Shown here: positions 10,249 through 64,000 of the stretch, one piece after another
Numbering within the stretch: position 1 is the first letter of the stretch
Layout: each line of letters begins with the position of its first letter
From: Promethearchaeota archaeon
GTDB lineage: Archaea > Asgardarchaeota > Heimdallarchaeia > Hodarchaeales > Hodarchaeaceae
Assembly (NCBI GenBank): GCA_048938105.1
Contig: JBHLMN010000004.1
Coordinates: 287,442 to 351,441, forward strand
Direction of reading: 5' to 3'
Length of the DNA: 64,000 bases
Made by a program: the position numbers and the translations under genes
Notes under the pieces: model-generated
What the model saw: only the letters and a program-made list of their open reading frames with translations
Databases searched by the model: none
What the model was told of the DNA's origin: nothing

Positions 10249-10773
10249 TCAATAAAGAGTAAAAATATTAAATCGATTCCAATCCTCTAGGTGACCCTCA
10301 ATAGTTAAAAAATCAGAGCATGATACAACTGCAATGTTATAATTTTCTCTCATCACATCTTTTACTGGAGAAAAATGATGTTCATCATTAGATATAACGT
10401 ATGATACTTCTGTTTGTACTGAAAATTCACAAAAATATTTATCTTTTCTACTCATATCGAGTATTAAATGTTGAGGAACATATTTGCATATTGAAATTTT
10501 TTCAAATCCTTCAAGAGTTGTTATTAAATTCCTTACTAGCATATCTGCAAATCTTGGAGCTATTTTCCTTCTGTTATAAAGCGTATTGACCAGCTCATTC
10601 AGCATACGTGGACAAGAAACAATCTCAAGTTCCTTACATTTCTCAATTATCCGTAAAACAACCTCAAAACCATCCCCACCATGATCCAAGTAATTAAGCA
10701 ATACATTTGTATCCAAAACTACTTTTTTCCGCATTGATTGCTGCCCACACAATAATATCCTGAAATTGTTCAT
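10249..10773 (-). CDS. PIN-domain ribonuclease
   Basis: KVVLDTNVL, conserved E, KDKYF and VISNDEHHF; overlaps the ATPase stop by 4 nt. Confidence 0.88.
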   Translation of the reverse strand: MNNFRILLCGQQSMRKKVVLDTNVLLNYLDHGGDGFEVVLRIIEKCKELEIVSCPRMLNELVNTLYNRRKIAPRFADMLVRNLITTLEGFEKISICKYVPQHLILDMSRKDKYFCEFSVQTEVSYVISNDEHHFSPVKDVMRENYNIAVVSCSDFLTIEGHLEDWNRFNIFTLY

Positions 10774-48550: not shown

Positions 48551-48840
48551 AAGAATGGATTTTTCAAGGATCTTCAAAAAAAACCGTAGATCACATATTT
48601 TTAGGTAATACAAGGGCAACCCATTTTTCATATCTTCGGGCTAGAGATTATGAATTCACTTCTATTGTAACAGGCTCTGTATACTCAATCTTAAATCTTT
48701 ATTTTGGGTATAGTTTCCTTAAATTTAAGCATTCTGAGAGCGAAATCGCTTAATGATCTTTAAGGTGTTGTTAATTACTCCTTTATTACGAGATTTTTAT
48801 AATTGTATTTATGTATAATACTAATAGAAAGCATATCAAG

Positions 48841-49248
48841 ATGAATCCTAACAAGAAAAAGACTGAAGAAGAATGGAAAAAAATCCTGACAAAAGAAAAT
48901 TTCAGGATACTCCGAGAGAAAGGTACAGAACGAGCTTTCACAGGGAAATATTGGGATCATTTTGCTGAAGGGGAATATAAGTGTGCAGGATGTGGAACCC
49001 CCCTTTTTGTGTCTGAAGAGAAATTCTTATCGAGTTGTGGATGGCCTAGTTTCTCTAATCCAGTTAAAGGCACTATTAAAGAAAAAATCGATACTTCCCA
49101 TGGAATGATTCGGACTGAAGTGTTATGTTCGGCTTGCGGAGGGCATTTGGGACATGTGTTCAATGATGGCCCAAAAGAGAAAGGAGGATTACGGTACTGT
49201 ATCAATTCAGCTTCAATAGAATTTGAACATTGTGATTTTCCAAAATAA
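48841..49248 (+). CDS. msrB: Peptide-methionine (R)-S-oxide reductase; last five codons supplied by the transposon end
   Basis: [36 protein letters not shown] and RYCINSAS. Confidence 0.97.
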
Positions 49249-49296
49249 GTGATAAATTGTTCAAAATAATGATTAATTTTCCAGAAATAATTATAA
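49231..49296 (+). repeat. Transposon end: TGTGA followed by three TnsB-type binding sites
   Basis: TTTTCCAAAATAAGTGATAAA (49236), TTGTTCAAAATAATGATTAA (49257) and TTTTCCAGAAATAATTATAA (49277); preceded by AACAT. Confidence 0.8.
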
Positions 49297-49344: not shown

Positions 49345-50796
49345 TCAGATTGGAGTCAGAATTAGATTTGGTTTCGAAGTATACAATCCTGTTAAAATCT
49401 CAAAAGCTCCTGACAAACCCAAAGAGATAATATCATCAGAAGGTATGTGTGAATGCATTATTTTGTTTCTAAGTGAATTTAAATTCGTAAATGCCCTTTT
49501 CAATCTCTCCAAATCTGGAAATACATTATAGAAAAATTTATTATGTAATGAAGTAGTTGATACTATCTTACCCAAATCAGAAAAATATGAATTAACAAGA
49601 ATAGCACGTAAACATTCGATGGGGTCATTAAATTTGTTGTTCACGAGTTTTTCTTTTTCTTCTTTACTTTTTGGAATTTTATTCTTTTTAAAAGTTCTCT
49701 GACTAGCACTACCTTTTTTGATGCTTTCTGGCAATATTTTCCAAAGATGATACGATGAATTCCACCCCTTTGGAGTTAATTTTTCCACGATTAGATCCCT
49801 AAGATTGTCTTCTAAGAAAATTATCAACTGAAAGATCTCCGATGATACTATTATATTTGAATCACCATATATGCGGTTTCTAAACGTATTAAAAACAATT
49901 AATGGATAATTTAGAACCTGTTTTGTAAGTGTTCTATATTTTGACCTGTTTTCAGGTGATATATTGGCAGATTCTATTAGTTCATGTGTGAATTTAATAT
50001 TTCCTTTTTCAATTATCTTAATCATCTCAATCATAAATTTAACAACTTCTAATAGAACATTTGGTTGTTTTACTAAACTAAAATGATTGAAGAGCTCCTC
50101 ATCGGATAGATTGTTTGCAAGCCTTTCTATACCTTCCAGTTTTGATCGAATCAAATTTATTCTGTCGTTTAATGGCTTTTCTTCTTTAATTTGGGAATCC
50201 CCAATAATTTTCTTTATTTCACCTTTTATCAAAACTAAATTAGGTGATAATTCAACAGTCTTTTCTTTGAATATTTTCTTGCATAAATCTGATGATCTTA
50301 TTGAATAAATGAATGCATTTTGATTCATCAGAGCTGTATCAACTTCACTTTCATTGTGGATAGAAAAAGTGCCATTTGAAATCCAAGAACTACTCTTTAG
50401 TGTACATTTAATTTTTATTAGTCCTATATTGTATAATTCCCACAGACTGTTCTGAAGCTGACTTTCAGAAAAAGAGCTTTTTCTTAATGTTCGCTCTCTT
50501 GTCCATTTTGCATGTGATTCTAAAACAATAATTAGAATATTGTGTAAAAATGATCTTCTCAATATATATTTTTTTAACCTATTAGGATCTATTAGGTCTG
50601 TAGTTTCCCTTAGTGAGATAATACGGATTATTTTAAATTTTACTATATTTAAGACTCCACAATTAGGACAAATTGTATATCTATTATTGACAAAGATTTC
50701 ACAAATATTTAGGCTATTCTGAATTTCATAAGAAACTGTGAAAGATTTAATAGTAGCATCAAAGTAGTCTGAACAATGTTCACATGTAAAAATTAT
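49345..50796 (-). CDS. Zn-ribbon + wHTH + Swt1-like HEPN protein; probable ATA start (483 aa)
   Basis: The frame is open from 50796, adding CEHC...CPNC upstream of the track's TTG at 50562. FLEDNLRDLI, YFSDLGKIV and LRNKIMHSH. Confidence 0.8.
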   Translation of the reverse strand: MIFTCEHCSDYFDATIKSFTVSYEIQNSLNICEIFVNNRYTICPNCGVLNIVKFKIIRIISLRETTDLIDPNRLKKYILRRSFLHNILIIVLESHAKWTRERTLRKSSFSESQLQNSLWELYNIGLIKIKCTLKSSSWISNGTFSIHNESEVDTALMNQNAFIYSIRSSDLCKKIFKEKTVELSPNLVLIKGEIKKIIGDSQIKEEKPLNDRINLIRSKLEGIERLANNLSDEELFNHFSLVKQPNVLLEVVKFMIEMIKIIEKGNIKFTHELIESANISPENRSKYRTLTKQVLNYPLIVFNTFRNRIYGDSNIIVSSEIFQLIIFLEDNLRDLIVEKLTPKGWNSSYHLWKILPESIKKGSASQRTFKKNKIPKSKEEKEKLVNNKFNDPIECLRAILVNSYFSDLGKIVSTTSLHNKFFYNVFPDLERLKRAFTNLNSLRNKIMHSHIPSDDIISLGLSGAFEILTGLYTSKPNLILTPI

Positions 50797-53576
50797 TCAT
50801 CATCCCTTTTCTCTAAATAATATGGAATCTTTGTTGAAGTTATATCTGCTTTGAAAATCGCTTCAGGTATCTTAACGAAACTTGGATTGCCTTTCTCTCT
50901 TCTTCTAACTAGATAAACTGTTTTAGCTGGTTTAAGATAGATATTCTGAGGTGAAATAATCAAATAGGTAATCCTACTGCCCCCCAATATTTTCATTAGT
51001 TCTTCTGTCCTTATAGGATCTGTTCGTTCATAAATTTCATCCCAAAAACAAAATGTATGCTTGAGAAATGTTTCTTGAACTGAAACAATAAATGCGATTA
51101 ATATAGCTGCTTTTTCTCCACTACTAAAAATGCTTTCTCCCAAAGCTGAATGGTACTCTGATCCTTCAGAAAATCTAACTTTTAAATCAATTCCAAGGTT
51201 GTCAGTAATGGTATCTGCCTTTCCAATTAAATTTATTCTTCCTTCTGCCTTTATTAGGCTCATGAGTTCATTAAATCTTCGGTTAAGTATCTTAATACTG
51301 TTTTGTAAATCCAAACGATATCTCTTAATATAAGACAAAATTTTGTCTTCCCATATACCCACTTCACCTCTACATTGATCTAATTTCCCTTGAAAATCTT
51401 CAATTTCTGATTCCAGTAACATTATTTCTTGAGAGTGATCTCTTGCATCCTTAACTTTTTCTAATTCTTTTTTTAAGAAATTAGTCTCAGCTTCATAAAA
51501 GCTGGGTACTTCCAGTTTATGTAATTCTGAGAGAGTAACAGATGGAAATTCTACTTCCAACCTTTCTTTTGTTCTCTTAACCGTTCTTAGCTCAATTTCA
51601 ATTCCAGATTTTTGATCTTCTTTGTTTTTAATTTCTGTATTGAGACTATTAATCTTTTCCTTAAATTTTTCCCTTTTTCCTTCCTTTTCTCTTAGTCTTA
51701 CACCTAAGTTTTCTAATTCATTTTGAATTCTACTTTGTTCAATATTATGATCCTCAATAATTTCTTCTAGACTACATTTTTCAAATTCTTTGTCACTAAT
51801 CGTTTTTAATAATTGAGATTTACTCTCCCAATTGACTAGTAATCTTTTGAACTTGTTAAATTTCTTAATATGGTTTAATTTAACCATTTTTTTTTCATTT
51901 TCATTATTTAATTGTTCCTCAAGTCCTTTTATCTCAATATCTAATGTTTCAATTTGTTTTTCCCAATCTATAACTGGTTGAATATTCTCTGATAGAGTAT
52001 AACGATATCCGATACCATCATATAGAATTCCATCATTCTCTATCACTTTTTTACTATATTCTTCATTTTTTATAACTTTTATAAGTTCTTCATTAATTAT
52101 TTCAGATAAAATTTCATATTTACAATTATATAATGATTTAAAATAGTCATTATAAGAAAAAGGGACAGATTTATCTATATCAGTTAAGCTAATCAAATAT
52201 TTTTCAAAATTAGTTTCTTGAAACGCTTTCTTAACTGTTTTAAGATTACTAGAAATATTATTTTCAGTCACAAGGGAATACCGTAGATCTTTCAATATTG
52301 CTTCTATTAAAAGTTTCATTTCTTTCGGTGTGTTTTCATTAAAACTTATAATTTTGTAAAAAGGTTCAGTTAAGATATTTAGATTTCCTAATTTATCTTG
52401 AAATTCAATTGATGGTTTTGTTAAAGGTTTTCCACTCTCTAAATTCATTTTTGTTTTTGTAAGTTTTTGTAAACTCATATCTAATTTATCAAACTCTCTA
52501 TCTATTTGTTTTACCTCTTCTTCGTAAGATTTAATCTTGTTTTTTACTTCAGGAATATCCAAACCTTCTGGAATTTTATTCGCCATAGTATGAAATTCAT
52601 TCAATTTATCAAGCTGTTCTAAAATTTTTCCTAAATTAATGGTAAGATCACTAATCTCATCAGTTTTTATATCCAATTGTCCTTTTACTATTCTATATTT
52701 TTCGTCTAATAACTCTATAGCATCCCTATTTTTTTTTAGATTCTTTTCATATCCCTTTTTCCTTTCTTTATGTTCATTTATATCTTCTAATATCGAGTAT
52801 AGATCATCTTCTAATTTACCTTGATTTTTTATTGCTATATTAAGTTCTGACTTTTTCTTATTTAAAATAGATAAATCTATTCGTTCTTCAATACGTTTCT
52901 TTTTTTCAAATCTGTCCTGTTGCCCTTTTAATAAATTAATTTTTGCACTTTTCTCTAATAACTCGTTATTAATCTTTTGAATCTCTTCATTAATGTTTAC
53001 TAATCTTATTAGATCTTTATCCCAATTTTTCCTTAAGTTTTGTAATTTTAAAATTCTCTCAAAGTGTCTTAAGAGGGAAACTGGCGAACTATCAAGAATA
53101 CTTCTTGTTTGACCTGCTGCAATAAATGTTGCTTGATCATCAGCATTAAACTCTATTTTACTCAATATTTCTCTTATTGTGGCTTGACTCGTTGATTTCC
53201 CATTAATTTTATACGATCGTGTAATTCTTTCTTTCTGATTATTGTCAATGAATCTTTTGAATTCTACTCTGAATTTAATAATATTCATACCTGTAGTCAA
53301 ATGATGTTCAATAAGATCTTTCCCGTTTGTTCGATTACTTATATTAACTTCAGCAAACCCAAAATCTGTACCATTTCTTAGTAATAGATTATTAGGTCTA
53401 CGTGATGTTCCACCAAGGGCAACTAAGACCGCATTCCATATAGATGATTTTCCTGATCCATTATCACCGTAGATTACATTAAGATCCTCAGAAAACTCTA
53501 ACGTAAGACCAGGATCACCTATTCCCATTATATTTACAACAGAAACCGATTTTATCATTTCTAACCCCAAAATCAA
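50793..53576 (-). CDS. SMC-family ATPase (JetC/MksB- or Smc5/6-like)
   Basis: GDNGSGKS, coiled coils, hinge-like PFYKIISF...IEAILKDLRYSLV, FSSGEK and FWDEIYERTDP; no Rad50 CxxC hook. Confidence 0.9.
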   Translation of the reverse strand: MILGLEMIKSVSVVNIMGIGDPGLTLEFSEDLNVIYGDNGSGKSSIWNAVLVALGGTSRRPNNLLLRNGTDFGFAEVNISNRTNGKDLIEHHLTTGMNIIKFRVEFKRFIDNNQKERITRSYKINGKSTSQATIREILSKIEFNADDQATFIAAGQTRSILDSSPVSLLRHFERILKLQNLRKNWDKDLIRLVNINEEIQKINNELLEKSAKINLLKGQQDRFEKKKRIEERIDLSILNKKKSELNIAIKNQGKLEDDLYSILEDINEHKERKKGYEKNLKKNRDAIELLDEKYRIVKGQLDIKTDEISDLTINLGKILEQLDKLNEFHTMANKIPEGLDIPEVKNKIKSYEEEVKQIDREFDKLDMSLQKLTKTKMNLESGKPLTKPSIEFQDKLGNLNILTEPFYKIISFNENTPKEMKLLIEAILKDLRYSLVTENNISSNLKTVKKAFQETNFEKYLISLTDIDKSVPFSYNDYFKSLYNCKYEILSEIINEELIKVIKNEEYSKKVIENDGILYDGIGYRYTLSENIQPVIDWEKQIETLDIEIKGLEEQLNNENEKKMVKLNHIKKFNKFKRLLVNWESKSQLLKTISDKEFEKCSLEEIIEDHNIEQSRIQNELENLGVRLREKEGKREKFKEKINSLNTEIKNKEDQKSGIEIELRTVKRTKERLEVEFPSVTLSELHKLEVPSFYEAETNFLKKELEKVKDARDHSQEIMLLESEIEDFQGKLDQCRGEVGIWEDKILSYIKRYRLDLQNSIKILNRRFNELMSLIKAEGRINLIGKADTITDNLGIDLKVRFSEGSEYHSALGESIFSSGEKAAILIAFIVSVQETFLKHTFCFWDEIYERTDPIRTEELMKILGGSRITYLIISPQNIYLKPAKTVYLVRRREKGNPSFVKIPEAIFKADITSTKIPYYLEKRDDE

Positions 53577-54226
53577 GTCTTCTCATTTTCAAATGTCCAC
53601 CCTTCTAAAATTGAAAAGATTTTTGTATTTAAATCATTAATTTGTTCTGAAAGTTCTGATTTCCAATCCAACAGAACAAATCTCCCACTACTGGTTGTTA
53701 TTCTTTTAATATATTTCTTATTTTCAAGTTTTGCTAGAAAACCTCTAATTTCTCTATTATTATATCCATAAGAGCTTTTGATATAATTAATAAGGGATGT
53801 TTCCGAAATATTTGACTCTATTTGGGACATTATTAATATGTATACCAATGTGGCTTTTTCAGGTGTATTTAATTCTTCTTTCATAAAATCTACGAATTTT
53901 TTGTCACCAGTAAGTATGAAGTTATTGTCATTATCTAAGATTTCTATTGAAAAGCTAGAGAATAGAGCTCTTAACCTTGTTAAATGATGATCTACATCCT
54001 TCCCTAAAATTGTAATAAGTCTATTTTTAGAAACTCCTCTTCCATCATTGAACATTAGAGCTATTAAAACTGCGATTAATCTATTTGATAAGTCTTGTGA
54101 CTTTTCGTTTTTGATCAACAAAACATCATCATCTTGTTTTTTAGTCAGATAGCCTAGAATGTTAAAAAAACACTTAGTAGCTTTAATTTCTTTTGTAGAA
54201 AAGTCGTCAGGTAAAATTATGTTCAG
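53573..54226 (-). CDS. Tandem winged-helix KITE-like subunit (JetB/ScpB/Nse1-3-like); probable CTG start
   Basis: Two wH-like halves (LNTPEKATLVYIL...LAKLENKKYIKR), positioned between the kleisin-like and SMC genes. The frame is open to CTG 54226 behind GAGGTGA. Confidence 0.7.
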   Translation of the reverse strand: MNIILPDDFSTKEIKATKCFFNILGYLTKKQDDDVLLIKNEKSQDLSNRLIAVLIALMFNDGRGVSKNRLITILGKDVDHHLTRLRALFSSFSIEILDNDNNFILTGDKKFVDFMKEELNTPEKATLVYILIMSQIESNISETSLINYIKSSYGYNNREIRGFLAKLENKKYIKRITTSSGRFVLLDWKSELSEQINDLNTKIFSILEGWTFENEKT

Positions 54227-54236
54227 TTATATCACC

Positions 54237-55466
54237 TCAAGCTTTATTGATCAAACCATTTCTTATTCTTGAAATTTTCTGGTGCTTTATTTCGTCTATT
54301 TGCTCCTTTAAGGCAACTTTGATTACTCCCCTAATCTCTAGGTCCTTAATGGCTCTTATTATTGCATTAGAGTCTTCCCATTCTTTATTTTCAATAAGAT
54401 TTTGGATTTGAATAGGTTGAAAATCGCTTAAATGATTATAAATTTCTTCTTGTTTTTCTAATGTCCCTTGATTTGGCCGATATTCCTTCGGAATTTCATT
54501 AACATTATTAATTAATATTGGAACACTGAATTGATGTACTTTAGTTGATACAGACTCTCTTTGCGAGCTTTTTTCATCTTTAATACACCATTTTAAAACA
54601 TTAGTTGATGTAATAATTGGTAAAGATTTGCTACTTAAGAATGGTAAAAATTCAATCAATCTTGCCATTTCTTCAACAGTTGCAGATTTAAGATAGTTCT
54701 GTACATCATCTGGATATATTCCAACTTCAGAAAGCTTAATTTTTCTTTTAATAAAACTTGACTCACGTTTCCAGGCAATTGAGAAAGCTTTAGTCAATTC
54801 TTGACGTAATTTGCTAAAGGGGGCAAAATCCTTTATATTGGTTGTTGGCTTGAGGTGTATATCGACTTGCTCTATTATTTCTCTTCGAAGTTGTTCAAGT
54901 GACTCTCCATATGTCTCATTCGAATCTGATCGATAATTCATATAGATACTTTCTATGATTGATCTCAGTAATTGTTGTAGACTTTCAAAATCACCTATTG
55001 CATCACCCTCTCCAGTCCAGGATAATATCATATCAAATCTTTTTTTCGCCATCCAAAAGTCTGAATTCGGTAATGTAGCTAGCAATTGAGATAAAATAAA
55101 GGCAACCCAATTCCCTTTTGGTGTAAGTATATATGTATTGAAATACTTCCCTTCTATTAAAAGGTTGAGAGTACGCAATTTTGCTAAATCAGACGATTTA
55201 ATTTCGACTAGACCTGGAAAATGATGTTCTACTAATGATTGAATTTCTCTACGGGTCAATGATTGTTCAGGCTTATAATTCCAAGCCATTGATAATAGGA
55301 TTAAGAAACGTCGTATTCCTGAATCACCTCTTTGTGATACTATGAAAAGAATTCCAGAAATTTCTTTTAGAGAATCTAGTGAAAAGAAGATCTTTTTAGA
55401 TCTTCCTGGAAAATAGATTTTCTCTCCGTGAAAATAATCATTAGTCTTCATTTCATCATTTCTCAT
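54237..55466 (-). CDS. Kleisin-like subunit (JetA/MksF-like)
   Basis: N-terminal wH (YILTPKG), helical bundle, low-structure linker and C-terminal wH (IRAIKDLEIRGVIKV); first gene of the SMC operon. Confidence 0.65.
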   Translation of the reverse strand: MRNDEMKTNDYFHGEKIYFPGRSKKIFFSLDSLKEISGILFIVSQRGDSGIRRFLILLSMAWNYKPEQSLTRREIQSLVEHHFPGLVEIKSSDLAKLRTLNLLIEGKYFNTYILTPKGNWVAFILSQLLATLPNSDFWMAKKRFDMILSWTGEGDAIGDFESLQQLLRSIIESIYMNYRSDSNETYGESLEQLRREIIEQVDIHLKPTTNIKDFAPFSKLRQELTKAFSIAWKRESSFIKRKIKLSEVGIYPDDVQNYLKSATVEEMARLIEFLPFLSSKSLPIITSTNVLKWCIKDEKSSQRESVSTKVHQFSVPILINNVNEIPKEYRPNQGTLEKQEEIYNHLSDFQPIQIQNLIENKEWEDSNAIIRAIKDLEIRGVIKVALKEQIDEIKHQKISRIRNGLINKA

Positions 55467-55587: not shown

Positions 55588-56739
55588 CTATTTCTTTCTT
55601 ACTCTGTTCACCTCTCCAAATACATTTAATAATAAATCATTCCACGAATAGATACCAAAATTTCTCCAATGTCCTAGATGACATGCACCTTGAATTGACC
55701 TCATTCCTAAATCTCTTTTTTTTGGTTTTCGCTTATAAATTTCCGCGAATTTCAGTAATTTTTCCTTAGCATGATCAAATCCCTTCTTTCCAATGTAAAT
55801 ATTATTTTTTCGATTAACATCACCAAATATATCAAAAAGTAGATCATTCCATGAATTAATCCCAAAATCTTGCCAATATCCTTTAAAACACGCTTTAGCG
55901 ATTGTTTCCATCCCTTTATCTCTGTAATTAGGTTTTCTTCTGTATTTCTTGCAGAAATCTAAAAGTTCACCTTTTACTCGCTTTAGATTTTCTAATCCTT
56001 TGAAAAGATTAATCTCCTGATTTACTTCTCCAAAAATATCCATTAATAAATCGTTCCATGAAGATATTCCAAACTCCCTCCAATTACCCTGAAGACATGC
56101 TTTTTGAATTGATTTCATCCCTTCATCCCTAATTGTTGGTTTATAGCCTTTTTCTTTGAAAAAAGCAATTATTCTCTTATTTGCGAGCTTTAAACCCTTC
56201 AAACCAACATAAGGATTTCTTTCTTTATTTAATTCTCCAAATACACTCAAAAGTAAATCATTCCATGAGGTAATACCATAATTAGTCCAGTAGTTATGAT
56301 AACATGATTCTATAAGAGATTGCAATTCTTTATCATTGGAAGTAGGCAATCGTTTATGCTTATGATAGAACACCCTCAATTTGCATTGGGCAATCTCTTT
56401 TCCTAATTTTCCTTTCCTCCCATTTGTTTTGATCAAGGCTTTGAGAAAATCTTCAAATTCAGCTAAAAGATATGTTAATTTTCTTAAAAAGTTATATTCT
56501 ACGTTATATTTCTTACAAATCTCATTCGAATATCCAGAAATAAAGAATTCCATTATAATTTGCTTTAACCGCCTAGTCTCTTTTAAAAACCATTTTGAAT
56601 AAAATTCTTCATTATCAATTTTCCATATTCGGAGGTCATCATAAATCTTGACTGAAAAAGTAAAATCTTGATAATCTAGGATTTTTGTTTTCAAATCACT
56701 TGGTTTCACAATTTTGAAGTTTTGCCCATCTACACTCAT
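55588..56739 (-). CDS. Repeat protein B: four 69-aa W..GI.SWNDLL..FG repeats; candidate transposon target selector
   Basis: 207-bp DNA period (55634, 55841, 56048, 56255). Likely start is ATG 56739 behind GGGGA (the track starts at 56856). Confidence 0.8.
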   Translation of the reverse strand: MSVDGQNFKIVKPSDLKTKILDYQDFTFSVKIYDDLRIWKIDNEEFYSKWFLKETRRLKQIIMEFFISGYSNEICKKYNVEYNFLRKLTYLLAEFEDFLKALIKTNGRKGKLGKEIAQCKLRVFYHKHKRLPTSNDKELQSLIESCYHNYWTNYGITSWNDLLLSVFGELNKERNPYVGLKGLKLANKRIIAFFKEKGYKPTIRDEGMKSIQKACLQGNWREFGISSWNDLLMDIFGEVNQEINLFKGLENLKRVKGELLDFCKKYRRKPNYRDKGMETIAKACFKGYWQDFGINSWNDLLFDIFGDVNRKNNIYIGKKGFDHAKEKLLKFAEIYKRKPKKRDLGMRSIQGACHLGHWRNFGIYSWNDLLLNVFGEVNRVRKK

Positions 56740-56819
56740 ATTTAATTCCCCTTGAATTGATATGTCGAAAAGGTTATCGTTTTTGTTAATTCTGACTTTT
56801 ATATCAATAGTATAACGTT

Positions 56820-57941
56820 TTATTCGTTCCAAACCTCCTTTAACAAATCTATCCAAGAATTAATTCCATTTTTAGTCCAATAACCTCTTTGAATTGCTTT
56901 TACAATACCACCTACACCCTTTGACCTTCTTGTAGGTTTTATTTCATTTGTCTTATAATACATTCTTAGGTAGGCTTTTGCATATTCTAATCCTTCCTCT
57001 CCAGTCCATATGTGACTCTTTTTATTTACTTCTCCAAAAATATGAAAAAGGAAATCATTCCAGGAGTGAATTTTTTGATCTTCCCAATATTTCCTCTTGA
57101 TTGCTGTACAAATTCCCATCATTTTACAGTCATTAGCTTTAGGTTTTCTCTCATGAGTCGAATAAAATTCTAACGCTTCCATTTTTGCTTTTTCAAACCC
57201 AGCTTGCCCTGTATATACATTATTTTCTTTATTAACTTCCCCAAAGATTGTTTTCAGTAAATCATTCCATGATTTTATATTAAAATCCTTCCAAATACCT
57301 CGTGAGATAATATTTAGGTATTGTGACATCCCATTATCCCTTGTAGTTGGAATTCGATCAAATTCGCGATGAAAGTTACGAAGTTTTTCTTCAACTACTT
57401 CCAATCCTTCTTTACCATTATAAGTACCATATTCTTGATTCACATCACCAAAAGCAGCCCTGAGTAGTTCATTCCAACTTGTAATTACATATTTTTCCCA
57501 ATAAAGCTTTCTTCTTAGAGCTTTTTGAAGTCCATTAAACCCCTTATCTCTCTGAACAGGATTACGTCCTTTTTCTTTTTTAAAAAGTCTTAAACGAGCT
57601 TTAGCGAGTTCTAAACCTAATCTTCCCTTCCAACCATTTACCCTGAATAACGCAGATGTGATATTGGTGAATTCTAGAACGTTGAAAGCTAATTCTCTAA
57701 TAAGTTGAAAATCTTGATCGTATTTATCACAAACTGATTGGGAGTATCCTTCTTGAATAAATTCTATTACAATAATCCTTAGTTTTTGAACTTCCTCTAG
57801 GAACCATTTGGAATAACATTCTTCATTATTAATCTTCCACAAACCAGAGAAATTTAATAGGTTGATATTCTCTAGATTAGTTCCAACTGAATGAATAGCA
57901 TCTGCAGTTTTACATGGCTTTGGAATTTTAAAAATGTCCAA
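56820..57941 (-). CDS. Repeat protein A: four ~69-aa repeats, paralog of 55588..56739
   Basis: Shared N-domain WKI.NEE.YSKWFL.E and the same repeat consensus; directly downstream of tnsC. Confidence 0.8.
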   Translation of the reverse strand: MDIFKIPKPCKTADAIHSVGTNLENINLLNFSGLWKINNEECYSKWFLEEVQKLRIIVIEFIQEGYSQSVCDKYDQDFQLIRELAFNVLEFTNITSALFRVNGWKGRLGLELAKARLRLFKKEKGRNPVQRDKGFNGLQKALRRKLYWEKYVITSWNELLRAAFGDVNQEYGTYNGKEGLEVVEEKLRNFHREFDRIPTTRDNGMSQYLNIISRGIWKDFNIKSWNDLLKTIFGEVNKENNVYTGQAGFEKAKMEALEFYSTHERKPKANDCKMMGICTAIKRKYWEDQKIHSWNDFLFHIFGEVNKKSHIWTGEEGLEYAKAYLRMYYKTNEIKPTRRSKGVGGIVKAIQRGYWTKNGINSWIDLLKEVWNE

Positions 57942-57967
57942 ATCATAATCATTTCCCCTTAAATCTT

Positions 57968-59179
57968 CTATATCCGATCACCCTCTCTATTAACTAGTTT
58001 AATGTTTTTATGTTTCATTTTATAATGATTAATTAAATTTCTGTATGTTTTGTAAGGAGATCGAGACCTTTTGCACCCTTTAATCTTACATAAACGGTCT
58101 TCAAACCCAAGGACAATTTTCAGCTCATTACCATCCTCATGCTCTACTCTAAGAGTTTCATAATTAACTCCCTCAAGGATAATTAAGCCATAATCATCTT
58201 TATCTGGATAGAGTCGTCCTGCGTTAAGGGCTCTTTTTGCTGCATATTTGATCAGTTCAACAGTCAATCCCGCTTTCCCATAACTTCTTTTATAAAGAAA
58301 CATTGCTATTTCTGGATTTAAAACTAAATTTTCACTAGATTTATCCTCAATTACCAAATTCCATTTATCTGAAATTCCCATTGATGTGAAATCTTCATGA
58401 ATAGCCCATAGAAAATTACCATATTCAATCTGGGGTAAACTCCTTAGTTTAATAGAATGGGCTCTTCCTTGTATCCAGTCAGCTGCATCTAATAATGGAA
58501 GGCCATCTTGTGTTCCACAGAGCAAAAAATATGTTCTTAATGAGTCTTTCCAGTATGATTTTGTTGTTAAGTCTTTCAAAGCCTCAAAGATATTCGGAAT
58601 GTCAGGATTTCTAGATTTTAATAGGCGTTGACATTCATCTATAATTAATAAACGTGTTTTATACGATTCTAGTACTGATATGAGTTTCTGTCGGAGACGG
58701 ACTTCACAAACATTAGTTTTTTCCCAATTCTTAACCTGACGCGGATCAATAGGCCGTCCTAATTGATCTAGTAGAAATAACAATAATTGTTTCGCAGTGT
58801 TAATATCATTTGTTAAATTAACAATGATAATTGGATGAGTTTCTTCAGGATTGTCCCAGTATGAACGATATTTCTCTTTAAAAAGGGAAGCTGAATATCT
58901 TAATAAATAGGACTTTCCTGAATTATAATCTCCATACAAGAATAATATCCGACCCCGATCATTCATATCTTGATCAGCATCACGAAATCTAGGATCAAGT
59001 TCAAGTCTAATAATTTCTTTTGCTTGGTTATACATATAGAATGGTTTTCGTGTATTAATTCGGTCAAGAATTTCCTTTAATTCTTTAGGAAGTGAATCCA
59101 ACAGTTCAAGATGGTCTTCTGACACTTCAAAGTTATCATAACTATCAATTGAATTAGAAGTCATGTTTTCTATACTCAC
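57968..59179 (-). CDS. tnsC: TnsC/TniB AAA+ ATPase with C-terminal C2H2 zinc finger
   Basis: GDYNSGKS, LLIIDECQ, LCGT and IQGR; C-terminal CKIKGC...HYKMKH; overlaps the tnsAB stop by 4 nt. Confidence 0.88.
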   Translation of the reverse strand: MSIENMTSNSIDSYDNFEVSEDHLELLDSLPKELKEILDRINTRKPFYMYNQAKEIIRLELDPRFRDADQDMNDRGRILFLYGDYNSGKSYLLRYSASLFKEKYRSYWDNPEETHPIIIVNLTNDINTAKQLLLFLLDQLGRPIDPRQVKNWEKTNVCEVRLRQKLISVLESYKTRLLIIDECQRLLKSRNPDIPNIFEALKDLTTKSYWKDSLRTYFLLCGTQDGLPLLDAADWIQGRAHSIKLRSLPQIEYGNFLWAIHEDFTSMGISDKWNLVIEDKSSENLVLNPEIAMFLYKRSYGKAGLTVELIKYAAKRALNAGRLYPDKDDYGLIILEGVNYETLRVEHEDGNELKIVLGFEDRLCKIKGCKRSRSPYKTYRNLINHYKMKHKNIKLVNREGDRI

Positions 59180-61824
59180 CTCTTTTTCCTTTTTGCTAGA
59201 TCTCCAGCTTTCTTTTTTGTTATACCAGAAAATGGATTAGCTATTTTTGAAGGAATTTTAATTGTTTTTAGACGTTCTGGCTTTTCGATCTGAAAGACTT
59301 CAGGGTTAATGTGTGTATCGTCATTATTTTTTGTAAATCTATCATTTTCTTTATTGGAATAATTAGGTTTACTTTTTTCTCTACACTTTCGTCTTGCGTG
59401 TTTTTGTCGTGCACTCTTTGTTTTTTCTGCAGCTTTTTGATCTATTTCTTGCTGTAAACTTAGAAGTCTTAATTTTCTCTCCATATCTTCCTCTTTTCTT
59501 CCTTCGAGATTTTTATCAGCCTTTATAGCATTCCAATCCCATAGAGAAAGAGATTTTTCTCTAAAATAAATATTTACAAAACGATCAGTACAATTAAGCT
59601 CAATATATCCACGAATGTGATCATAAAAGTAAATTATTCTTATGTCTCTTGGATCAAACCTAATTCGAAACTTCTGACTTCTTTTCGTATTTATTGGATC
59701 TTTACTACCAATATATTGTTCAATTTCTTCGTTTGCATATTTAAGACCAAAGATTTCAATACCACTTTTCTGAACAGTTCGTAATTCAGAAGGTAGAACG
59801 TCAAACTTGAAAGTAGTATTGTCAACATGAAGTAAATTTCTATTGATCCCTCTTTCCTCACTAATCAATGAAAAACTTTGCTTCCATTTGGCCAAAGGAT
59901 TAGTTCTAATCTGACTGTGGTATTCTTCATGATAAAGTGCAATTTCTGTAATTATTCTGGCTTCTAATTCATCAATGGTAAAACTAGCTCTTTTTTCCGA
60001 TGGATAGTTCTCTCTTTGAGTAGGATTAGAATATGTGGTTCCTGCAATAGAATGTAATCTATTATTAAGTGTGCCAAGGAATCGTTCGACATAAGCTCCA
60101 TGTTGAGGCTTTTTTACTGCACGATAATGTAAATGAACTCCATATTTTAATCCAAAGAGCCTTATATCTTCACTCGTAAAATCTGAACCATTATCCATGT
60201 GCAGTGTATAAGGTAAACCAAATACTTGACACCATTCACTCGATTCCAAAATCCCTAGTTTTTCTGAATCTAAATCAGGAAATTGTTCTCTAACTTTTAG
60301 AAGAGATTCTTTCTTGTTTTGAATACAATTAATCAAGGTCATTGCAATAGAAAGCCGACTGGGAGAGTCATAGGTGATATAATATCCCAGAACACATCTA
60401 GAATGACTATCGAATGCTATGGTGATATAAGGACGTTCAGTAACTAATCTATATTCCTCATCCACAACTAAAACATCAATTGGGGTGTGATCAATCTGTA
60501 CGGATTGCAAAACATAAGTACCATGTGGAAATTCCGATGTATTGATATTAAACAAGTTTTCGATGGCTTTTTCCCCTCTCCTTTGTTTAATTACTTCTTT
60601 TTGAGAAATGCTCTTTAATCTACGCCTAAAAGATGAATAGCTTAAGCAATGTTCTAATTGACCTTGTTCTAATGCATAGGCTTGCATAAGTTCATGGGCC
60701 CGTTTGATACTTTTCCGTTCCATTTGTAAGTAATAACTTAGGCCTATCTCGCATAATTCCTCCGTAAGGCCCTTTTGTACCTTTTTTCTTCCTCTTTGAT
60801 TGTACTTGGGAATCAGGCTTTTTATATCCCCCCCACTTTTGTTATAAGCTAATATCCAACGATACACGGTTAACCAAAAGATCTCTTGGCCATCTTTTTT
60901 GAATTTCATTTGTTTTAATCGTTTAATTGGAGTTCCTAATAAGGGGTAAATAATTTCTAATCGAGAATTAGCCTCCTCCCACAGTTCAATGGATTTTTTC
61001 GGATTATTAGAGATTGCATATACATCATTGTAAAATGTTACACTAGAATCTACACTTTGTTGTTTTTCCCAATCGAAAGTTCGAAACCAAGTGTCTAATG
61101 GTTTATAATTGGATCTAAATGTATTTACTTCATAAAGAAATGATTTTTCTGTTAGTAATTCATCTATATTTACGTTTAATTCGAAATGATATATCATAGC
61201 ATAAAGAGTTGACCAAATATCATCAATAGTAACACTTTCGGGAAGAAGTTTCAGATTAATGGATTCTACTAGATTTCTTATTCTAATTCTTGGTTTTTTT
61301 GATAAAATGGCTTTTATGTGTTTTTTGATTTCTATATAAACCATTGGGTCTATCGTAGCTTGCATTAATTTTCGTAAATTGTAAATTCTGAAAGATTGGT
61401 TTACGATCTGATCTGTAACTACAATAAACTCAATATCTACATTATTTATGTCTGTTATTTGATTTGAGAGATCATTTCTGTTTTCATCAATCCATTTCTG
61501 GGTTTCAGAGAATTTCTTAATGAACTCCATCTTCTTCTCGAGTAAATCTTTAAGATACTTAACTTCGATGATTAGAATCTTATATCGTTCATCAATTTTC
61601 AAGAAAACTACAAAATCAGGTGTCCATACACTTTTTGACCATTTAAGTTCAATTCCATGTTCACAATAGGATTTTACAAATGGGTCATGTTCAAGAAGAA
61701 TAGCTACATCCCATTCTAAGTTTGATTGACACCATACCTGTCTTCTAAGCTTTTTTGAGTAAAAAAAAATTGTTGTTGATATTTGGTTAGCTTTAGGTGT
61801 ATGTAAAGGACTGGTTTTTAACAA
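59176..61824 (-). CDS. tnsAB: TnsA-TnsB fusion transposase
   Basis: TnsA: FYSKK...QSNLE...TPDF...IEVK. TnsB: VQIDHT, RPYIT.AFD..SR, HMDNGSDF, GAYVERFLGTLN and Mu-C-like RFDPRDI. Confidence 0.93.
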   Translation of the reverse strand: MLKTSPLHTPKANQISTTIFFYSKKLRRQVWCQSNLEWDVAILLEHDPFVKSYCEHGIELKWSKSVWTPDFVVFLKIDERYKILIIEVKYLKDLLEKKMEFIKKFSETQKWIDENRNDLSNQITDINNVDIEFIVVTDQIVNQSFRIYNLRKLMQATIDPMVYIEIKKHIKAILSKKPRIRIRNLVESINLKLLPESVTIDDIWSTLYAMIYHFELNVNIDELLTEKSFLYEVNTFRSNYKPLDTWFRTFDWEKQQSVDSSVTFYNDVYAISNNPKKSIELWEEANSRLEIIYPLLGTPIKRLKQMKFKKDGQEIFWLTVYRWILAYNKSGGDIKSLIPKYNQRGRKKVQKGLTEELCEIGLSYYLQMERKSIKRAHELMQAYALEQGQLEHCLSYSSFRRRLKSISQKEVIKQRRGEKAIENLFNINTSEFPHGTYVLQSVQIDHTPIDVLVVDEEYRLVTERPYITIAFDSHSRCVLGYYITYDSPSRLSIAMTLINCIQNKKESLLKVREQFPDLDSEKLGILESSEWCQVFGLPYTLHMDNGSDFTSEDIRLFGLKYGVHLHYRAVKKPQHGAYVERFLGTLNNRLHSIAGTTYSNPTQRENYPSEKRASFTIDELEARIITEIALYHEEYHSQIRTNPLAKWKQSFSLISEERGINRNLLHVDNTTFKFDVLPSELRTVQKSGIEIFGLKYANEEIEQYIGSKDPINTKRSQKFRIRFDPRDIRIIYFYDHIRGYIELNCTDRFVNIYFREKSLSLWDWNAIKADKNLEGRKEEDMERKLRLLSLQQEIDQKAAEKTKSARQKHARRKCREKSKPNYSNKENDRFTKNNDDTHINPEVFQIEKPERLKTIKIPSKIANPFSGITKKKAGDLAKRKKR

Positions 61825-61853
61825 TTGAACTCATCTGAATGGTTTTTAAATGA

Positions 61854-61872
61854 TTATCATTATTTTGGAAAA
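61854..61872 (-). promoter_or_regulatory. Single TnsB-type site upstream of tnsAB (probable autoregulatory operator)
   Basis: Reverse complement is TTTTCCAAAATAATGATAA, matching the consensus of the end repeats; no terminal ACA next to it. Confidence 0.7.
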
Positions 61873-62322
61873 AAAGAAGTTTATAAGCTCCCTAGAACTT
61901 AGTTTTCATATGTCAGCTCCTTTAAAAGCAAGCATTGGTAGTATTTCCTGCCGTAGCAACCGAAAGAAACGTCTAATAACACATCAAATCAATACATACT
62001 GTTCATTGACAGATTTAACTCTGTCAAATCATAAGTAGAAGAAGGGAACTAATGAGGTTGTAGGTGATGTATGAGTGATGAACGAGGAAGCGGCTTATAA
62101 TGGCACACTGGAGCTAATGTTTAAGCAATATCCATGATTAAAATATAATCCTAGAAAATATAACCAGAAATCAATAAATAAGCAAATACTGGTGATTATG
62201 CCAAATAATAAGGTAGAGTCTGATCCTGAACTAAGACTGGTAGGAGTCAATAACCGTTATATTGATGTTAATTTATTAGCGTTTATTGATGTTCAGTAAG
62301 TATTACTTGATTAGGGGATAAA

Positions 62323-64000
62323 ATGCCGTACTATTACATAACAGAAACAAATTTTGATCCATCTGTAGTAACCAAGTACGAAGAATTGCTTAAATGGTTT
62401 GAACAATCATTAAATGAAGAATATCATATCTTTATTGAGTTCAAAGTGCCAGCTGGGCGGGAAATTGACTTCTTAATACTAGCAAGAGATGGAATATGGC
62501 TAATTGAGCATAAACAGCATGATTTCATTGAGATCTTAAATGAAGGAAACTGGAAATATAAGGACCATCGTGGTCAAGAGAGAACACTTATTAAAAAAGT
62601 CAAAACTGGATATGAGAATCCATATAGACAAGCAACTAATACTGGAAACAACTTTGCTTCTTGGTTAAGACGGAATAACCATCTAGGTAACAATCTAAGA
62701 AAAAGAAAAAAGATTTACCCATGCGTGACATTCCCCGATTACCCCACGGAAATAGCAAAGCAAGAAACAGACTTGTGGTGTTATATTTCTAAAGGCGTGG
62801 AAGGAATACAAAAGAACATGGAAAATAGACGATGGGAGGAAGGTGATTGGATAACAGAGGAAGCAATAGAAAACATAGCTACAGCATTAAACTTAGAAAG
62901 AATCTCCTATACAGACCTGATCCAACATAAAGCCAATTTAGAAAAGATTTTTATGGAAACCAGTAAAGCACAGGTGCAAGAAGTCAAGAAAATTTTTGCT
63001 GAAACAAATCAAGTATTTTCTAATAATGATTGGATCTTTTGTGCTAATTTAAAAGAAGAAAAATCCTCCCCTAGATTCAAAGAAGTACCATTAACCGATT
63101 TTAATAAAGAGTCACTCCCATTCATTCTCACAGGTGATTTTGGGAGTGGAAAGACAGTTGTGTGCTACCAGATTATGGAATATCTTTTAAAAAAACATTT
63201 GGGCTTTTATTTTCCTGTGAGAGAGATAATTGTAACAAAAGAGAACGAATCACATCAAAAAATTCTGTTTAAAGGTAAAGATTATACTTATCCCATTAAT
63301 GTAAATCAGGATATTTTTGAAAACGTAGAAAATGAAGTTAATGAAATAATTGTGTTTCTAATCAAAACCTTAATAGCTACTTATAATGAGAAGGGACTAA
63401 TTGACCAAATCACCAATGGTATCAAGAACTACTTGAATGATCAAAGATTCTTCATAATATTAGATGGATGGGATGAAATTTCAAGTCATTCCAGGAGTCT
63501 ACTGAAAAAAATCCTTGATTATCTGTTAATAAAGGATGTAGCTGTTATTGTTTCTTGCAGAACACCGTTAGACGTACACTTACCAAGAACCAAGGTAGAT
63601 AGTAAAAAAATCCCTATATATAACCCTATTCCATTACCAGAACAACAGATGATACAATACATCTCGGAACGGATTAAAAATTGGCTAATAGATATTTCTG
63701 CACCGCAAATTCTCTCTCTGTTAAAGAAAACTTATGATAATAATATTACACCTTTTCATCTATATGCAATGACAATTGTACCTATAACTGAACCTCCAAA
63801 GAATACAGCGCAATTGCTTCGATGGATGATTATTGCTCAAGTTGGTTGGGAATTATTGAAGGAAAGAAAGGATGAGTTTAAAGATATTAAAACGATTCAA
63901 GACCTTATAAATCTCTTAAAAAAAGAAATGATAATCATAGGTACAAAAGAAATCTCACTATACAATGCTATCTTTGATTACCAAGAAATTGATAACGATA
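62323..64000 (+). CDS. NERD nuclease + NACHT-like STAND NTPase, runs off window end
   Basis: Hand translation from ATG 62323 (GGGGA upstream): EIDFLILARDGIWLIEHK, ENPYRQA, LTGDFGSGKT and FIILDGWDEI. Confidence 0.85.
   Translation, partial: MPYYYITETNFDPSVVTKYEELLKWFEQSLNEEYHIFIEFKVPAGREIDFLILARDGIWLIEHKQHDFIEILNEGNWKYKDHRGQERTLIKKVKTGYENPYRQATNTGNNFASWLRRNNHLGNNLRKRKKIYPCVTFPDYPTEIAKQETDLWCYISKGVEGIQKNMENRRWEEGDWITEEAIENIATALNLERISYTDLIQHKANLEKIFMETSKAQVQEVKKIFAETNQVFSNNDWIFCANLKEEKSSPRFKEVPLTDFNKESLPFILTGDFGSGKTVVCYQIMEYLLKKHLGFYFPVREIIVTKENESHQKILFKGKDYTYPINVNQDIFENVENEVNEIIVFLIKTLIATYNEKGLIDQITNGIKNYLNDQRFFIILDGWDEISSHSRSLLKKILDYLLIKDVAVIVSCRTPLDVHLPRTKVDSKKIPIYNPIPLPEQQMIQYISERIKNWLIDISAPQILSLLKKTYDNNITPFHLYAMTIVPITEPPKNTAQLLRWMIIAQVGWELLKERKDEFKDIKTIQDLINLLKKEMIIIGTKEISLYNAIFDYQEIDND

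Follow-up and report, generated by a model that had tools for sequence, protein, structure and literature searches.

The protein regarded as the signature of the Tn7 family of transposons is TniQ/TnsD. Its Hel1 and zinc-finger piece is the only one kept by minimal TniQs, and solved complexes show this piece on TnsC. To our knowledge, this module makes the contact with TnsC in all described Tn7 relatives. The tniQ/tnsD genes have been described as ubiquitous in the Tn7 branch (Faure et al. 2023). The only survey of archaeal Tn7-like elements was keyed on the TniQ profile PF06527 and comprises seven Asgard elements (Thesier et al. 2025, bioRxiv 10.1101/2025.07.27.667033); because of that key, it could not have found elements of the kind described below. 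The only archaeal Tn7-like element to have been reconstituted, a Clade VIII element of Heimdallarchaeota, carries an ordinary TniQ combined with a DNA-binding domain of another type (bioRxiv 10.1101/2025.07.27.667033).

The window analyzed here, a 64,000-nucleotide stretch of a Promethearchaeota archaeon genome, contains an operon of the order tnsAB-tnsC-repA-repB, all on the minus strand, and the ORF positions bear out the gene order given in the original prediction. The span first assigned to the system, 55588-61824, does hold these four genes, whereas the element itself is larger, starting at position 49231 and passing the window end. The fused tnsAB (59176..61824, minus strand; 882 aa) encodes a TnsA-type endonuclease followed by a Mu/Tn7 DDE transposase. 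Pfam matches were to rve, HTH_Tnp_Mu_2 and Mu-transpos_C (7e-12), with a weak match to Tn7_TnsA-like_N (E 1e-4, below cut-off); PD-(D/E)xK-like and DDE-like motifs can be made out in the translation, which may really begin downstream of the TTG. The tnsC gene (57968..59179, minus strand; 403 aa) encodes a TniB-type AAA+ ATPase (Pfam TniB 1e-12, AAA_22 1e-11) with both Walker A and Walker B intact in the translation. At the TnsC C-terminus is a C2H2-type zinc finger (residues 364-390, C-x4-C-x15-H-x4-H; 58010..58090, minus strand), which is kept in all eight loci with the window's Rep N-domain subtype and was not found in TnsC of L038, L039 or the TniQ-bearing L002. Both tnsAB and tnsC are single-copy in the genome and all four core genes are intact. 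The locus has the transposase side of a Tn7-like element in both its parts, a TnsA-type endonuclease with a DDE TnsB and, after it, an AAA+ TnsC/TniB.

The element is complete, with ends and attachment site defined to the base, and extends over 24,578 bp from window position 49231 into contig C47. Its attachment-site gene is msrB, encoding methionine sulfoxide reductase B (48811..49248, plus strand; Pfam SelR E 3.4e-51, profile positions 1-115 of 116), which is kept in 17 of 21 congeners. Insertion swapped the last codon and stop of msrB, changing the end from EFEHL-stop to EFEHCDFPK-stop; the original end, CTCTGA, is present beyond the array in C47, and the stop codon is restored across the array. 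A perfect 5-bp target duplication, AACAT, occupies 49226..49230, and the same pentamer follows the distal terminus (G000:C47:10499-10503). The att-proximal end (49231..49296, plus strand) consists of a TGTGA terminus and a contiguous run of three TnsB-site-like repeats of 20 bp, at 49236, 49257 and 49277 (PWM scores 21.6, 19.1 and 16.0), the only such cluster in the window, and is 89% identical to a second end in C47. The termini are TGTG inverted repeats: TGTGATTTTCC at window position 49231, with three packed sites, and, reverse-complemented, TGTGGGTTTTC at C47:10498, with about four dispersed sites (distal end at C47:~10341-10498). The distal terminus and the duplication rest on the C27-C47 join, which has a 65-bp identical overlap and a frame open across it. 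This adjacency is also supported by the target duplication, the restored msrB stop and flank homology to G068, in which the DNA downstream of msrB is 73% identical to that beyond the array. The same kind of end adjoins msrB in G072 and G067, where it lies within ~10 bp of the position found in G000, and the site is empty in G065. With the AACAT duplication, these ends support the msrB 3' end as the insertion site, as had been proposed. In G067 only a remnant end is left at msrB, and Rep and a window-type TnsC were not found in the assemblies of G072 and G067. TGT-type inverted termini, transposase-site repeats, a 5-bp duplication and site- and orientation-specific insertion, the end features of Tn7-like elements, are all present; the transposon has its machinery intact and has transposed. 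Next to it lies a 2.2-kb mini element whose termini are the same as those of the main element.

One TnsB-site-like repeat, pointing inward, lies just upstream of tnsAB (61853..61872, minus strand; PWM 19-20); it is an inner site or operator, not an element end. A degenerate inner site occupies the collinear position in L078, where the real terminus is ~265 bp upstream of tnsAB, and in the window the PWM found no further TnsB-type site within 61873-62400. Two regions of cargo flank the core. The four genes at 49345..55466 (minus strand) encode a 409-aa protein, a 182-aa ScpB/wHTH-like protein, a 927-aa SMC/RecF-type ATPase (Pfam AAA_23, SMC_N) and a 405-aa protein; they are considered cargo because the genes downstream of Rep differ between related loci. 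PADLOC returned LmuB and JetC-type matches in this region, with PDC-M34B and ThsA-Macro on the 405-aa protein. The second region, of ~12 kb, begins in the window (61873..64000, plus strand), continues into C47 and is absent from 20 congeners. It includes a NERD-NACHT STAND NTPase gene (62323..; Pfam NERD, NACHT) with an in-frame continuation at G000:C47:691-4106, followed in C47 by genes for a DEAD-box helicase and a Pol-beta nucleotidyltransferase and by unknown genes.

RepA (56820..57941, minus strand; 373 aa) consists of an N-domain (residues 1-103; 57633..57941, minus strand) and four 69-aa repeats (residues 104-373; 56823..57632, minus strand). RepB (55588..56856, minus strand) is 422 aa long from a TTG, or 414 aa from the ATG at 56832, the form present in the protein collection; its N-domain occupies residues ~31-145 and its four 69-aa repeats residues 146-421 (55594..56421, minus strand). 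The two had been described as paralogs with a common N-domain of ~100 aa and four ~69-aa repeats apiece, and each part of that description held: they are 39% identical across 370 residues (E 5e-93), a repeat HMM recovers four units from either protein, and the N-domain motif W-K-I-x-N-E-E-x-Y-S-K-W-F-L is real and conserved family-wide. The SW[NI][DE][LF]L anchors are spaced exactly 69 residues apart (RepA 155/224/293/362, RepB 197/266/335/404). The AF2 model of RepA (pLDDT 88.9) is all-helical, with three helices per repeat, and the unit contains a strongly conserved SWNDLL-x3-FGEVN helix. Comparison of 308 repeats revealed a fixed scaffold in which positions 33, 36, 37 and 40 vary most; these form one face of helix 2, beside conserved basic residues, and the repeats are predicted to read DNA, probably via this variable face. 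The N-domain had a fold match to the Mu transposase I-beta HTH (Z 6.1) and the repeats to TetR-type HTHs (Z 4-5), all under the noise bar for helical proteins; the N-domain looks like an ordinary HTH.

Neither RepA nor RepB matched any Pfam family, HNH_repeat included, at E below about 0.09-0.1. Their homologs P0034, P0087, P0037 and P0012 reach the gathering score of HNH_repeat (PF18780) through summed repeats (P0034, 2.7e-20, 72.9 bits; P0087, 3.4e-17, 63 bits), and the homolog P0033 also matches HA (PF03457). The 69-aa modules probably belong, as distant relatives, to the HNH_repeat/HA type. TAL-effector-type repeats were considered and rejected: the match of the repeat profile to Hax3/dHax3 in the PDB (E 2e-6) is the sum of ~1 bit per repeat over 25 residues with no stretch significant alone, and the unit has 69 aa and three helices, versus a 34-aa two-helix unit.

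Both Rep proteins lack a TniQ domain, having neither a PF06527 match nor a Cys/His cluster, and the whole element, including the part beyond base 64000, is without a TniQ, TnsE-like or Cas gene, as the window alone had indicated. A six-frame PF06527 search of the whole genome G000 (5.85 Mb, 99% complete) gave no match, nor did searches of the C47 part of the element and of G060 and G127. As a positive control, the same search detects TniQ on other contigs of the Asgard genomes G159, G047 and G138. The TniQ part of P0033 as query found nothing in Rep loci. There is no room for a hidden TniQ exon, because the tnsC-repA gap is 26 nt and repA overlaps repB. Ahead of the region that aligns with P0033 residues 300-360 are ~40 residues in RepA and ~80 in RepB, and the Hel1 and zinc-finger module is not found there.

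A profile of the N-domain collected 87 cluster representatives. In ~80 of them, from several Asgard classes and with open frames, the domain lies at the same short N-terminus; in four it lies at ~270-365, each time with a true TniQ domain ahead. The TniQ-core relatives of RepA and RepB are P0033, P0087, P0099 and P0121. By BLASTP, RepA residues 43-373 align to P0033 residues 300-630 (E 4e-62). P0033 has a Pfam TniQ at residues 39-182, and its gene comes after tnsAB-tniB in L002. For an AF2 model of P0033 1-430, the top 15 structural matches were all TniQ/TnsD (Z 5-7.6), with the minimal V-K TniQ spanning residues 35-232. Measured against P0033, RepA is homologous to the TniQ/TnsD region past the zinc finger (Hel2 or first HTH) and to the C-terminal DNA-binding array; structural alignments of the N-domain with Hel2 have high rmsd. 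Given this homology, the earlier assignment of the Rep proteins to a selector class of their own is not supported in that form. Being homologous to part of bona fide TniQ-domain proteins, they did not arise as an unrelated invention and would be a new form of TnsD-like selector rather than a wholly new class. The best view is that they are TnsD-like proteins devoid of the Hel1-ZF module, or else a free-standing version of a DNA-binding module also captured by TniQ. The homolog search also confirmed that Rep genes consistently follow tnsC: ten loci have tnsAB-tnsC-Rep (the window, L001, L035, L036, L038, L039, L043, L045, L078 and L079) with one to three Rep genes each, at least two paralogs in half of them, and 3-12 repeats across elements. 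Members without a nearby tnsC occur at L037, L040, L042, L048 and L077.

We lean towards the explanation that RepA and RepB are TnsD-like target selectors without the TnsC-binding Hel1/zinc-finger module, and consider it somewhat probable. In its predicted layout, each corresponds to the half of a TnsD-type protein that binds DNA, with the N-terminal TniQ module missing. The fusion of homologs behind a real TniQ in the selector position assigns the N-domain-repeat arrays a part in target recognition. One paralog (either assignment is conjectural) would bind the conserved 3' coding end of msrB, TnsC would assemble beside it, and TnsAB would insert at a fixed short distance, duplicating 5 bp and leaving the end with the packed sites facing msrB; the other paralog might serve another target. 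The routes to TnsC that we know of are the module missing in RepA and RepB, or TnsE. The link from Rep to TnsC may instead run via clade-specific TnsC extensions, namely the C2H2 finger, or via DNA distortion sensed by TnsC.

It is also conceivable, though rather unlikely, that RepA and RepB are accessory DNA binders, such as tns repressors, end-binding or architectural proteins or target-immunity factors, with the target set by the TnsC C2H2 finger or by TnsAB. The conserved zinc finger of this clade's TnsC could bind DNA, the lone TnsB-type site directly upstream of tnsAB suggests local regulation, and the N-domain and repeats have generic HTH-like folds; prediction of a Rep-TnsC complex gave support neither for nor against contact. 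A single C2H2 finger reads ~3 bp, however, which is too little for the specificity of the msrB site, and the homologous arrays in related elements sit behind a real TniQ in the selector slot. Copy number (1-3) and repeat number (3-12) also vary between elements in a selector-like manner.

Rep might also bind the target and reach TnsC through an unrecognized adaptor, either a divergent or small TniQ-like protein or a host factor, comparable to TniQ-TnsF of Tn6022. There are precedents for a split between TniQ and a separate DNA-binding protein (PMC10293859; Clade I element, bioRxiv 10.1101/2025.07.27.667033), reconstitution of archaeal elements in E. coli failed for three out of four, perhaps for want of host factors, and several proteins of the present element, including the 409-aa, 158-aa, 190-aa and 461-aa products, have no known family. 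We nevertheless judge an adaptor improbable, given that PF06527 is without a match in three genomes bearing such elements, that the tnsC-rep junctions (26 nt in the window) are too tight for a gene, and that genes past Rep are not conserved across loci. That the Rep genes are decayed TnsD genes, with the 5' part lost and the element immobile, is very improbable: the shared short N-terminus with open frames in ~80 of 87 representatives from several Asgard classes, the intact core genes, the perfect duplication and the co-resident mini element with the same termini all argue against it, even though the outer end sites of the window copy are 12 kb from tnsAB, G067 has only its remnant end, and orphan family members occur.

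At least ten Asgard Tn7-like loci of the Rep clade are invisible to a TniQ-keyed search. If their Rep proteins are selectors, the TnsC-docking module is dispensable or replaceable, which raises the question of how TnsC is activated; this is directly testable, since the element is complete, its ends and site are known and an assay for an Asgard element already exists. A fixed repeat scaffold with few variable positions per unit is a candidate for engineered DNA recognition. A bolder proposal, which we regard as doubtful, is that a Tn7-type machine is aimed without TniQ by near-identical 69-aa modules that read DNA via a few variable helix residues, in a modular and possibly re-codable manner, and pass the site directly to a C2H2-bearing TnsC. 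If true, protein-only targeting would have a third route in addition to TnsD and TnsE, and the clade would provide a compact scaffold for programmable insertion.

Among known systems, TnsE of Tn7 and TnsF with a short TniQ in Tn6022 come close to the role proposed for RepA and RepB, since in each the target of a Tn7-type core is chosen by a protein other than TniQ. TnsE differs in having an unrelated fold that recognizes replication structures and is not a repeat array; TnsF, also not a repeat array, works through a TniQ adaptor, and no TniQ partner was found in the window element. In the HNH_repeat (PF18780) and HA (PF03457) families, as in Rep, the repeats are short and helical and show a pattern of conserved Trp and Gly-x-Pro, whereas the Rep unit is 69 aa long with its own SWNDLL-x3-FGEVN helix. 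We know of no member of these families acting in transposon targeting without a TniQ domain. A figure legend (Fig. S3) reports HA domains as the part of bacterial nrdD-targeting TniQs that binds DNA. The elements of Thesier et al. likewise have Asgard hosts, a fused tnsAB followed by tnsC, defense-type cargo, insertion at or inside a host gene and C2H2 fingers in the transposition module. Their selectors, however, all have TniQ with other DNA-binding domains, and in the window element it is TnsC, and not the selector, that bears the C2H2 finger; the sole listed protein with the present repeats, P0050, was recorded only as an orphan TniQ (bioRxiv 10.1101/2025.07.27.667033). TnsD and long TniQs (E. 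coli Tn7 TnsD; PMC10293859) differ from RepA and RepB in possessing Hel1 and the zinc finger (PF06527), and the window element reverses the Tn7 arrangement in that tnsAB adjoins the dispersed-site end and not the att-proximal end, with only one TnsB-type site left just upstream of tnsAB. In other respects, TnsD and long TniQs correspond to the Rep system: the gene directly follows tnsC, paralogs are frequent, several HTH-type modules make up the C-terminal part, the attachment site is in the 3' end of a conserved gene, and insertion is oriented with a 5-bp duplication.

The core of element A, a Tn7-like transposon in the Asgard archaeon genome G000, consists of four genes on the minus strand. 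The tnsAB gene (61824..59176) encodes 882 aa with a weak TnsA-like_N match, a Mu-type HTH, rve and Mu-transpos_C (7e-12), and PD-(D/E)xK-like and DDE-like motifs are legible in the translation. It is followed by tnsC (59179..57968), encoding a 403-aa TniB-type AAA+ protein (1e-12) with Walker A and B intact, and then by repA (57941..56820; 373 aa) and repB (56856..55588; 422 aa, with the 414 aa from ATG used in the protein collection). Because the tnsC-repA gap is 26 nt and repA overlaps repB, there is no space for an extra exon or gene between them. RepA and RepB are 39% identical across their whole length (E 5e-93), share an N-domain of ~100 aa ahead of the repeats and carry four SWNDLL anchors each, spaced exactly 69 residues apart; neither protein has a Pfam match. 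A single tnsAB and a single tnsC are encoded in G000. The original observation of a four-gene operon with paralogous repeat proteins after tnsC was borne out on every testable point.

The msrB gene (SelR, 3.4e-51) ends at 49248, and the msrB-side end of the element is formed by TGTGATTTTCC from 49231, followed by three contiguous 20-bp repeats. A second element end directly upstream of tnsAB was rejected, as only one repeat is found there (61853-61872) and the true end lies in another contig, C47. DNA to the right of that repeat is missing from 20 congeners. The window stops where its contig stops, and its final 65 bases recur unchanged at G000:C47:626-690; the NERD-NACHT frame stays open through to C47:4106, and C47 carries four inward-pointing repeats with a terminus, ...GAAAACCCACA, at 10498. 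The AACAT after this terminus is also the five bases preceding TGTGA at 49231. Separated from element A's duplication by 11 bases (CGTTAAAAAAT) is a non-autonomous, 2.2-kb mini element (C47:10515-12732), which shares its TGTG termini and binding-site repeats with element A and is flanked by AAAAT and AACAT. Its cargo is a PEMT/ICMT-like methyltransferase gene. Past the mini element, AACAT is followed by CTCTGA, which restores the msrB end EFEHL-stop, and the DNA 66-288 bp further on has 73% identity to DNA downstream of msrB in another genome, G068. Judged by sequence, the two contigs are adjacent, because of the 65-bp overlap, the open frame, the shared AACAT, the restored msrB end and the likeness to the G068 flank. 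So joined, element A measures 24,578 bp with a perfect 5-bp duplication. The sequences leading into these 65 bp and the NACHT frame beyond them differ between G000:C47:1-625 and window 63311-63935, suggesting that the assembly combines heterogeneous strains or includes the gene twice.

Insertion at the 3' end of msrB is supported by this duplication and by other genomes. The msrB site is empty in congener G065. A near-identical end occupies the same place in G072 (L064, G072:C5), where the contig breaks 750 bp on, inside the element, and G067 (L065, G067:C1:191900-) retains a remnant end at msrB without tns genes within 20 kb. Neither the Rep genes nor this TnsC were found in the G072 or G067 assemblies. 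Searches of the window for tRNAs and Rfam families gave no match, and therefore no RNA gene lies at either junction. When the window's site matrix was scanned over relatives, it was informative for L078 only, a related locus with a TGTGAG terminus ~265 bp upstream of tnsAB. From this position it follows that a 12-kb defense-type block of element A intervenes between tnsAB and its end. In L078, fragments of an RPB9/TFS-type zinc-ribbon gene (4021-4456 and 264-614) adjoin the tnsAB-proximal terminus, with a full-length copy 4 kb away, possibly another attachment site at which part of the gene has been duplicated.

That second block (~12 kb; window 62323-63999, plus strand, and G000:C47:691-10329), between tnsAB and the distal end, encodes a NERD-NACHT STAND NTPase (~1,700 aa), a DEAD-box helicase bearing a FUR-like wHTH at its N-terminus, a Pol-beta nucleotidyltransferase and three further proteins that belong to no known family. 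The other cargo is a four-gene cassette (49345-55466, minus strand) whose products are a protein of 409 aa with no assigned family, a ScpB/wHTH-like protein of 182 aa, an SMC-type ATPase of 927 aa with LmuB and JetC-type matches, and a protein of 405 aa that matches PDC-M34B and ThsA-Macro. The cassette resembles Wadjet and Lamassu in outline but is a clean fit to neither. Just outside the element, ORFs of 1,627 aa (41298-46181, minus strand) and 360 aa (46262-47344, minus strand) have no Pfam or PADLOC match.

A six-frame search of G000 (5.85 Mb, 99% complete) with PF06527, the Pfam TniQ profile, gave no match, and the same was true of G060 and G127, two genomes carrying similar loci. The search is valid on Asgard DNA, since it detects TniQ on other contigs of G159, G047 and G138. 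Element A encodes no TniQ and no Cas past base 64000.

A word-indexed search returned 53 RepA/RepB homologs, ~35 of which share one plan, 3 to 12 repeats behind an N-domain of ~100 aa. Where homologs are named, their sources are Promethearchaeota, Heimdallarchaeota, Hodarchaeales, Odinarchaeota and Lokiarchaeum, and within the window's own phylum the family is present in 21 genomes out of 399; the host is accordingly an Asgard archaeon. Three homologs (P0033, P0050 and P0056) have 250-360 additional N-terminal residues containing Pfam TniQ (E 1e-7 to 1e-15). Residues 300-630 of P0033 align with residues 43-373 of RepA (E 4e-62), so the N-domain has its homolog in the region of such proteins that comes after the TniQ zinc fingers. 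The TniQ portion of P0033, used as a query, had no match in any Rep locus. An exhaustive search of 1.84 billion representatives with the N-domain profile gave 87 matches; the domain is N-terminal in ~80 of these and lies at ~270-365 in four, all with TniQ ahead of it. P0130 and P0131, the nearest relatives that the TniQ-fused form has, are labelled as bacterial MAGs (Subteraquimicrobiales and Desulfobacterium), and L002, the P0033 locus, contains the methanogen-type gene FpoO; by these labels and this gene, the TniQ-fused version of the repeat array also exists beyond the Asgard archaea. The reconstituted Clade VIII Heimdall TniQ was rejected as a bearer of these repeats, as MCY3410933.1 and OLS22262.1 have other C-terminal regions. 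The repeat-bearing P0050 is OLS19707.1, recorded as an orphan TniQ. In L077 (GCA_026702845.1, Heimdallarchaeota KTGheim3B), P0059, a Rep-family protein of 729 aa, stands as an orphan beside IS66 and ResIII fragments; the TniQ-bearing element that the 2025 preprint reconstituted comes from this same KTGheim3B genome.

When residues 1-430 of P0033 were modelled with AF2 (pLDDT 73.5), TniQ and TnsD structures made up all of the 15 best matches to the model (Z 5-7.6). On this model, residues 35-232 are covered by the minimal type V-K TniQ (Hel1 plus zinc finger), and long type I-F TniQs reach about residue 370-400 with high rmsd. In terms of these models, the Rep N-domain would be either Hel2 or the first HTH after the TniQ core, with no ranking between the two. 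One TniQ-bearing relative has an HTH_28 match inside its N-domain region. The RepA model (pLDDT 88.9) had the Mu transposase I-beta HTH as the best, weak match to its N-domain (Z 6.1); a wide VIA structure search with RepA gave weak HTH matches only (Z <= 6.1, under the bar for helical proteins), and Foldseek of the full model against PDB gave none at E <= 0.001. The sole match of the N-domain profile to PDB sequences, a designed repeat protein, was not meaningful. Each repeat unit has three helices. Several homologs pass the Pfam HNH_repeat threshold through summed repeats, with P0033 also touching HA; RepA and RepB do not reach it. A likeness of the repeats to TAL effectors was rejected as a summation artefact.

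The order tnsAB-tnsC-Rep recurs in ten loci (the window, L001, L035, L036, L038, L039, L043, L045, L078 and L079), with three Rep genes in L001, two each in L035 and L078, and variable genes downstream; members without visible tnsC also exist (L037, L040, L042, L048 and L077). In L002, tnsAB and a short TniB (306 aa) are followed in the same position by P0033. A conserved C2H2-type finger (C-x4-C-x12-15-H-x4-H, then HP...D..GN) occurs singly at the TnsC C-terminus in all eight loci of the window's N-domain subtype (the window, at 58010-58090 on the minus strand, and L001, L035, L036, L043, L045, L078 and L079). L038 and L039, of the other subtype, have a lysine-rich tail, and L002 has neither. 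The apparent correlation of TnsC C-terminus with selector type is suggestive only, being a comparison of three lineages.

The fusion evidence, the synteny and the precise msrB insertion lead us to favor, with modest confidence, a reading of RepA and RepB as TnsD-like selectors without the TnsC-docking module. Synteny assigns the Rep array to the transposition module and not to cargo. An accessory, non-selector role is rather unlikely; the TniQ fusions assign the N-domain-plus-repeat array to target recognition, and insertion that recurs precisely at msrB shows a sequence-specific selector to be at work. That the Rep genes are decay products is very improbable. The repeat scaffold is nearly fixed among 308 repeats, and entropy peaks at positions 33, 36, 37 and 40, all on a single face of helix 2, and in the loop leading into this helix.

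If RepA and RepB are the selectors, the natural candidate for their binding site would be the conserved stretch that codes for RYCINS, 25-50 bp upstream of where the element inserted. The bound selector could reach TnsC through the TnsC finger, through the TnsC N-terminal extension or through a DNA distortion sensed by TnsC. Such a distortion reportedly recruits TnsC in Tn7. A complex prediction for TnsC with the RepA N-domain scored 0.10 (mark, 0.32), which counts neither for nor against binding. Action of the Rep proteins through an unrecognised adaptor is improbable, less so than decay.

The end of element A with packed sites faces the target gene, as does the right end of Tn7, whereas its tns genes sit toward the opposite end, the reverse of Tn7. 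TnsD comprises a TniQ core and several HTH domains (Faure et al.). Thesier et al. (2025, bioRxiv 10.1101/2025.07.27.667033) searched 13,858 archaeal assemblies with PF06527 and obtained 16 elements, of which seven belong to Asgard archaea; one was reconstituted, and its TniQ has a different DNA-binding part. The Rep-bearing, TniQ-less clade apparently figures in neither study, in the portions available, and would escape any search keyed on TniQ. RepA and RepB do not show the TniQ domain that defines TnsD-type proteins, yet are homologous to part of them, and the element core agrees with Tn7-like transposons in every tested respect but one.
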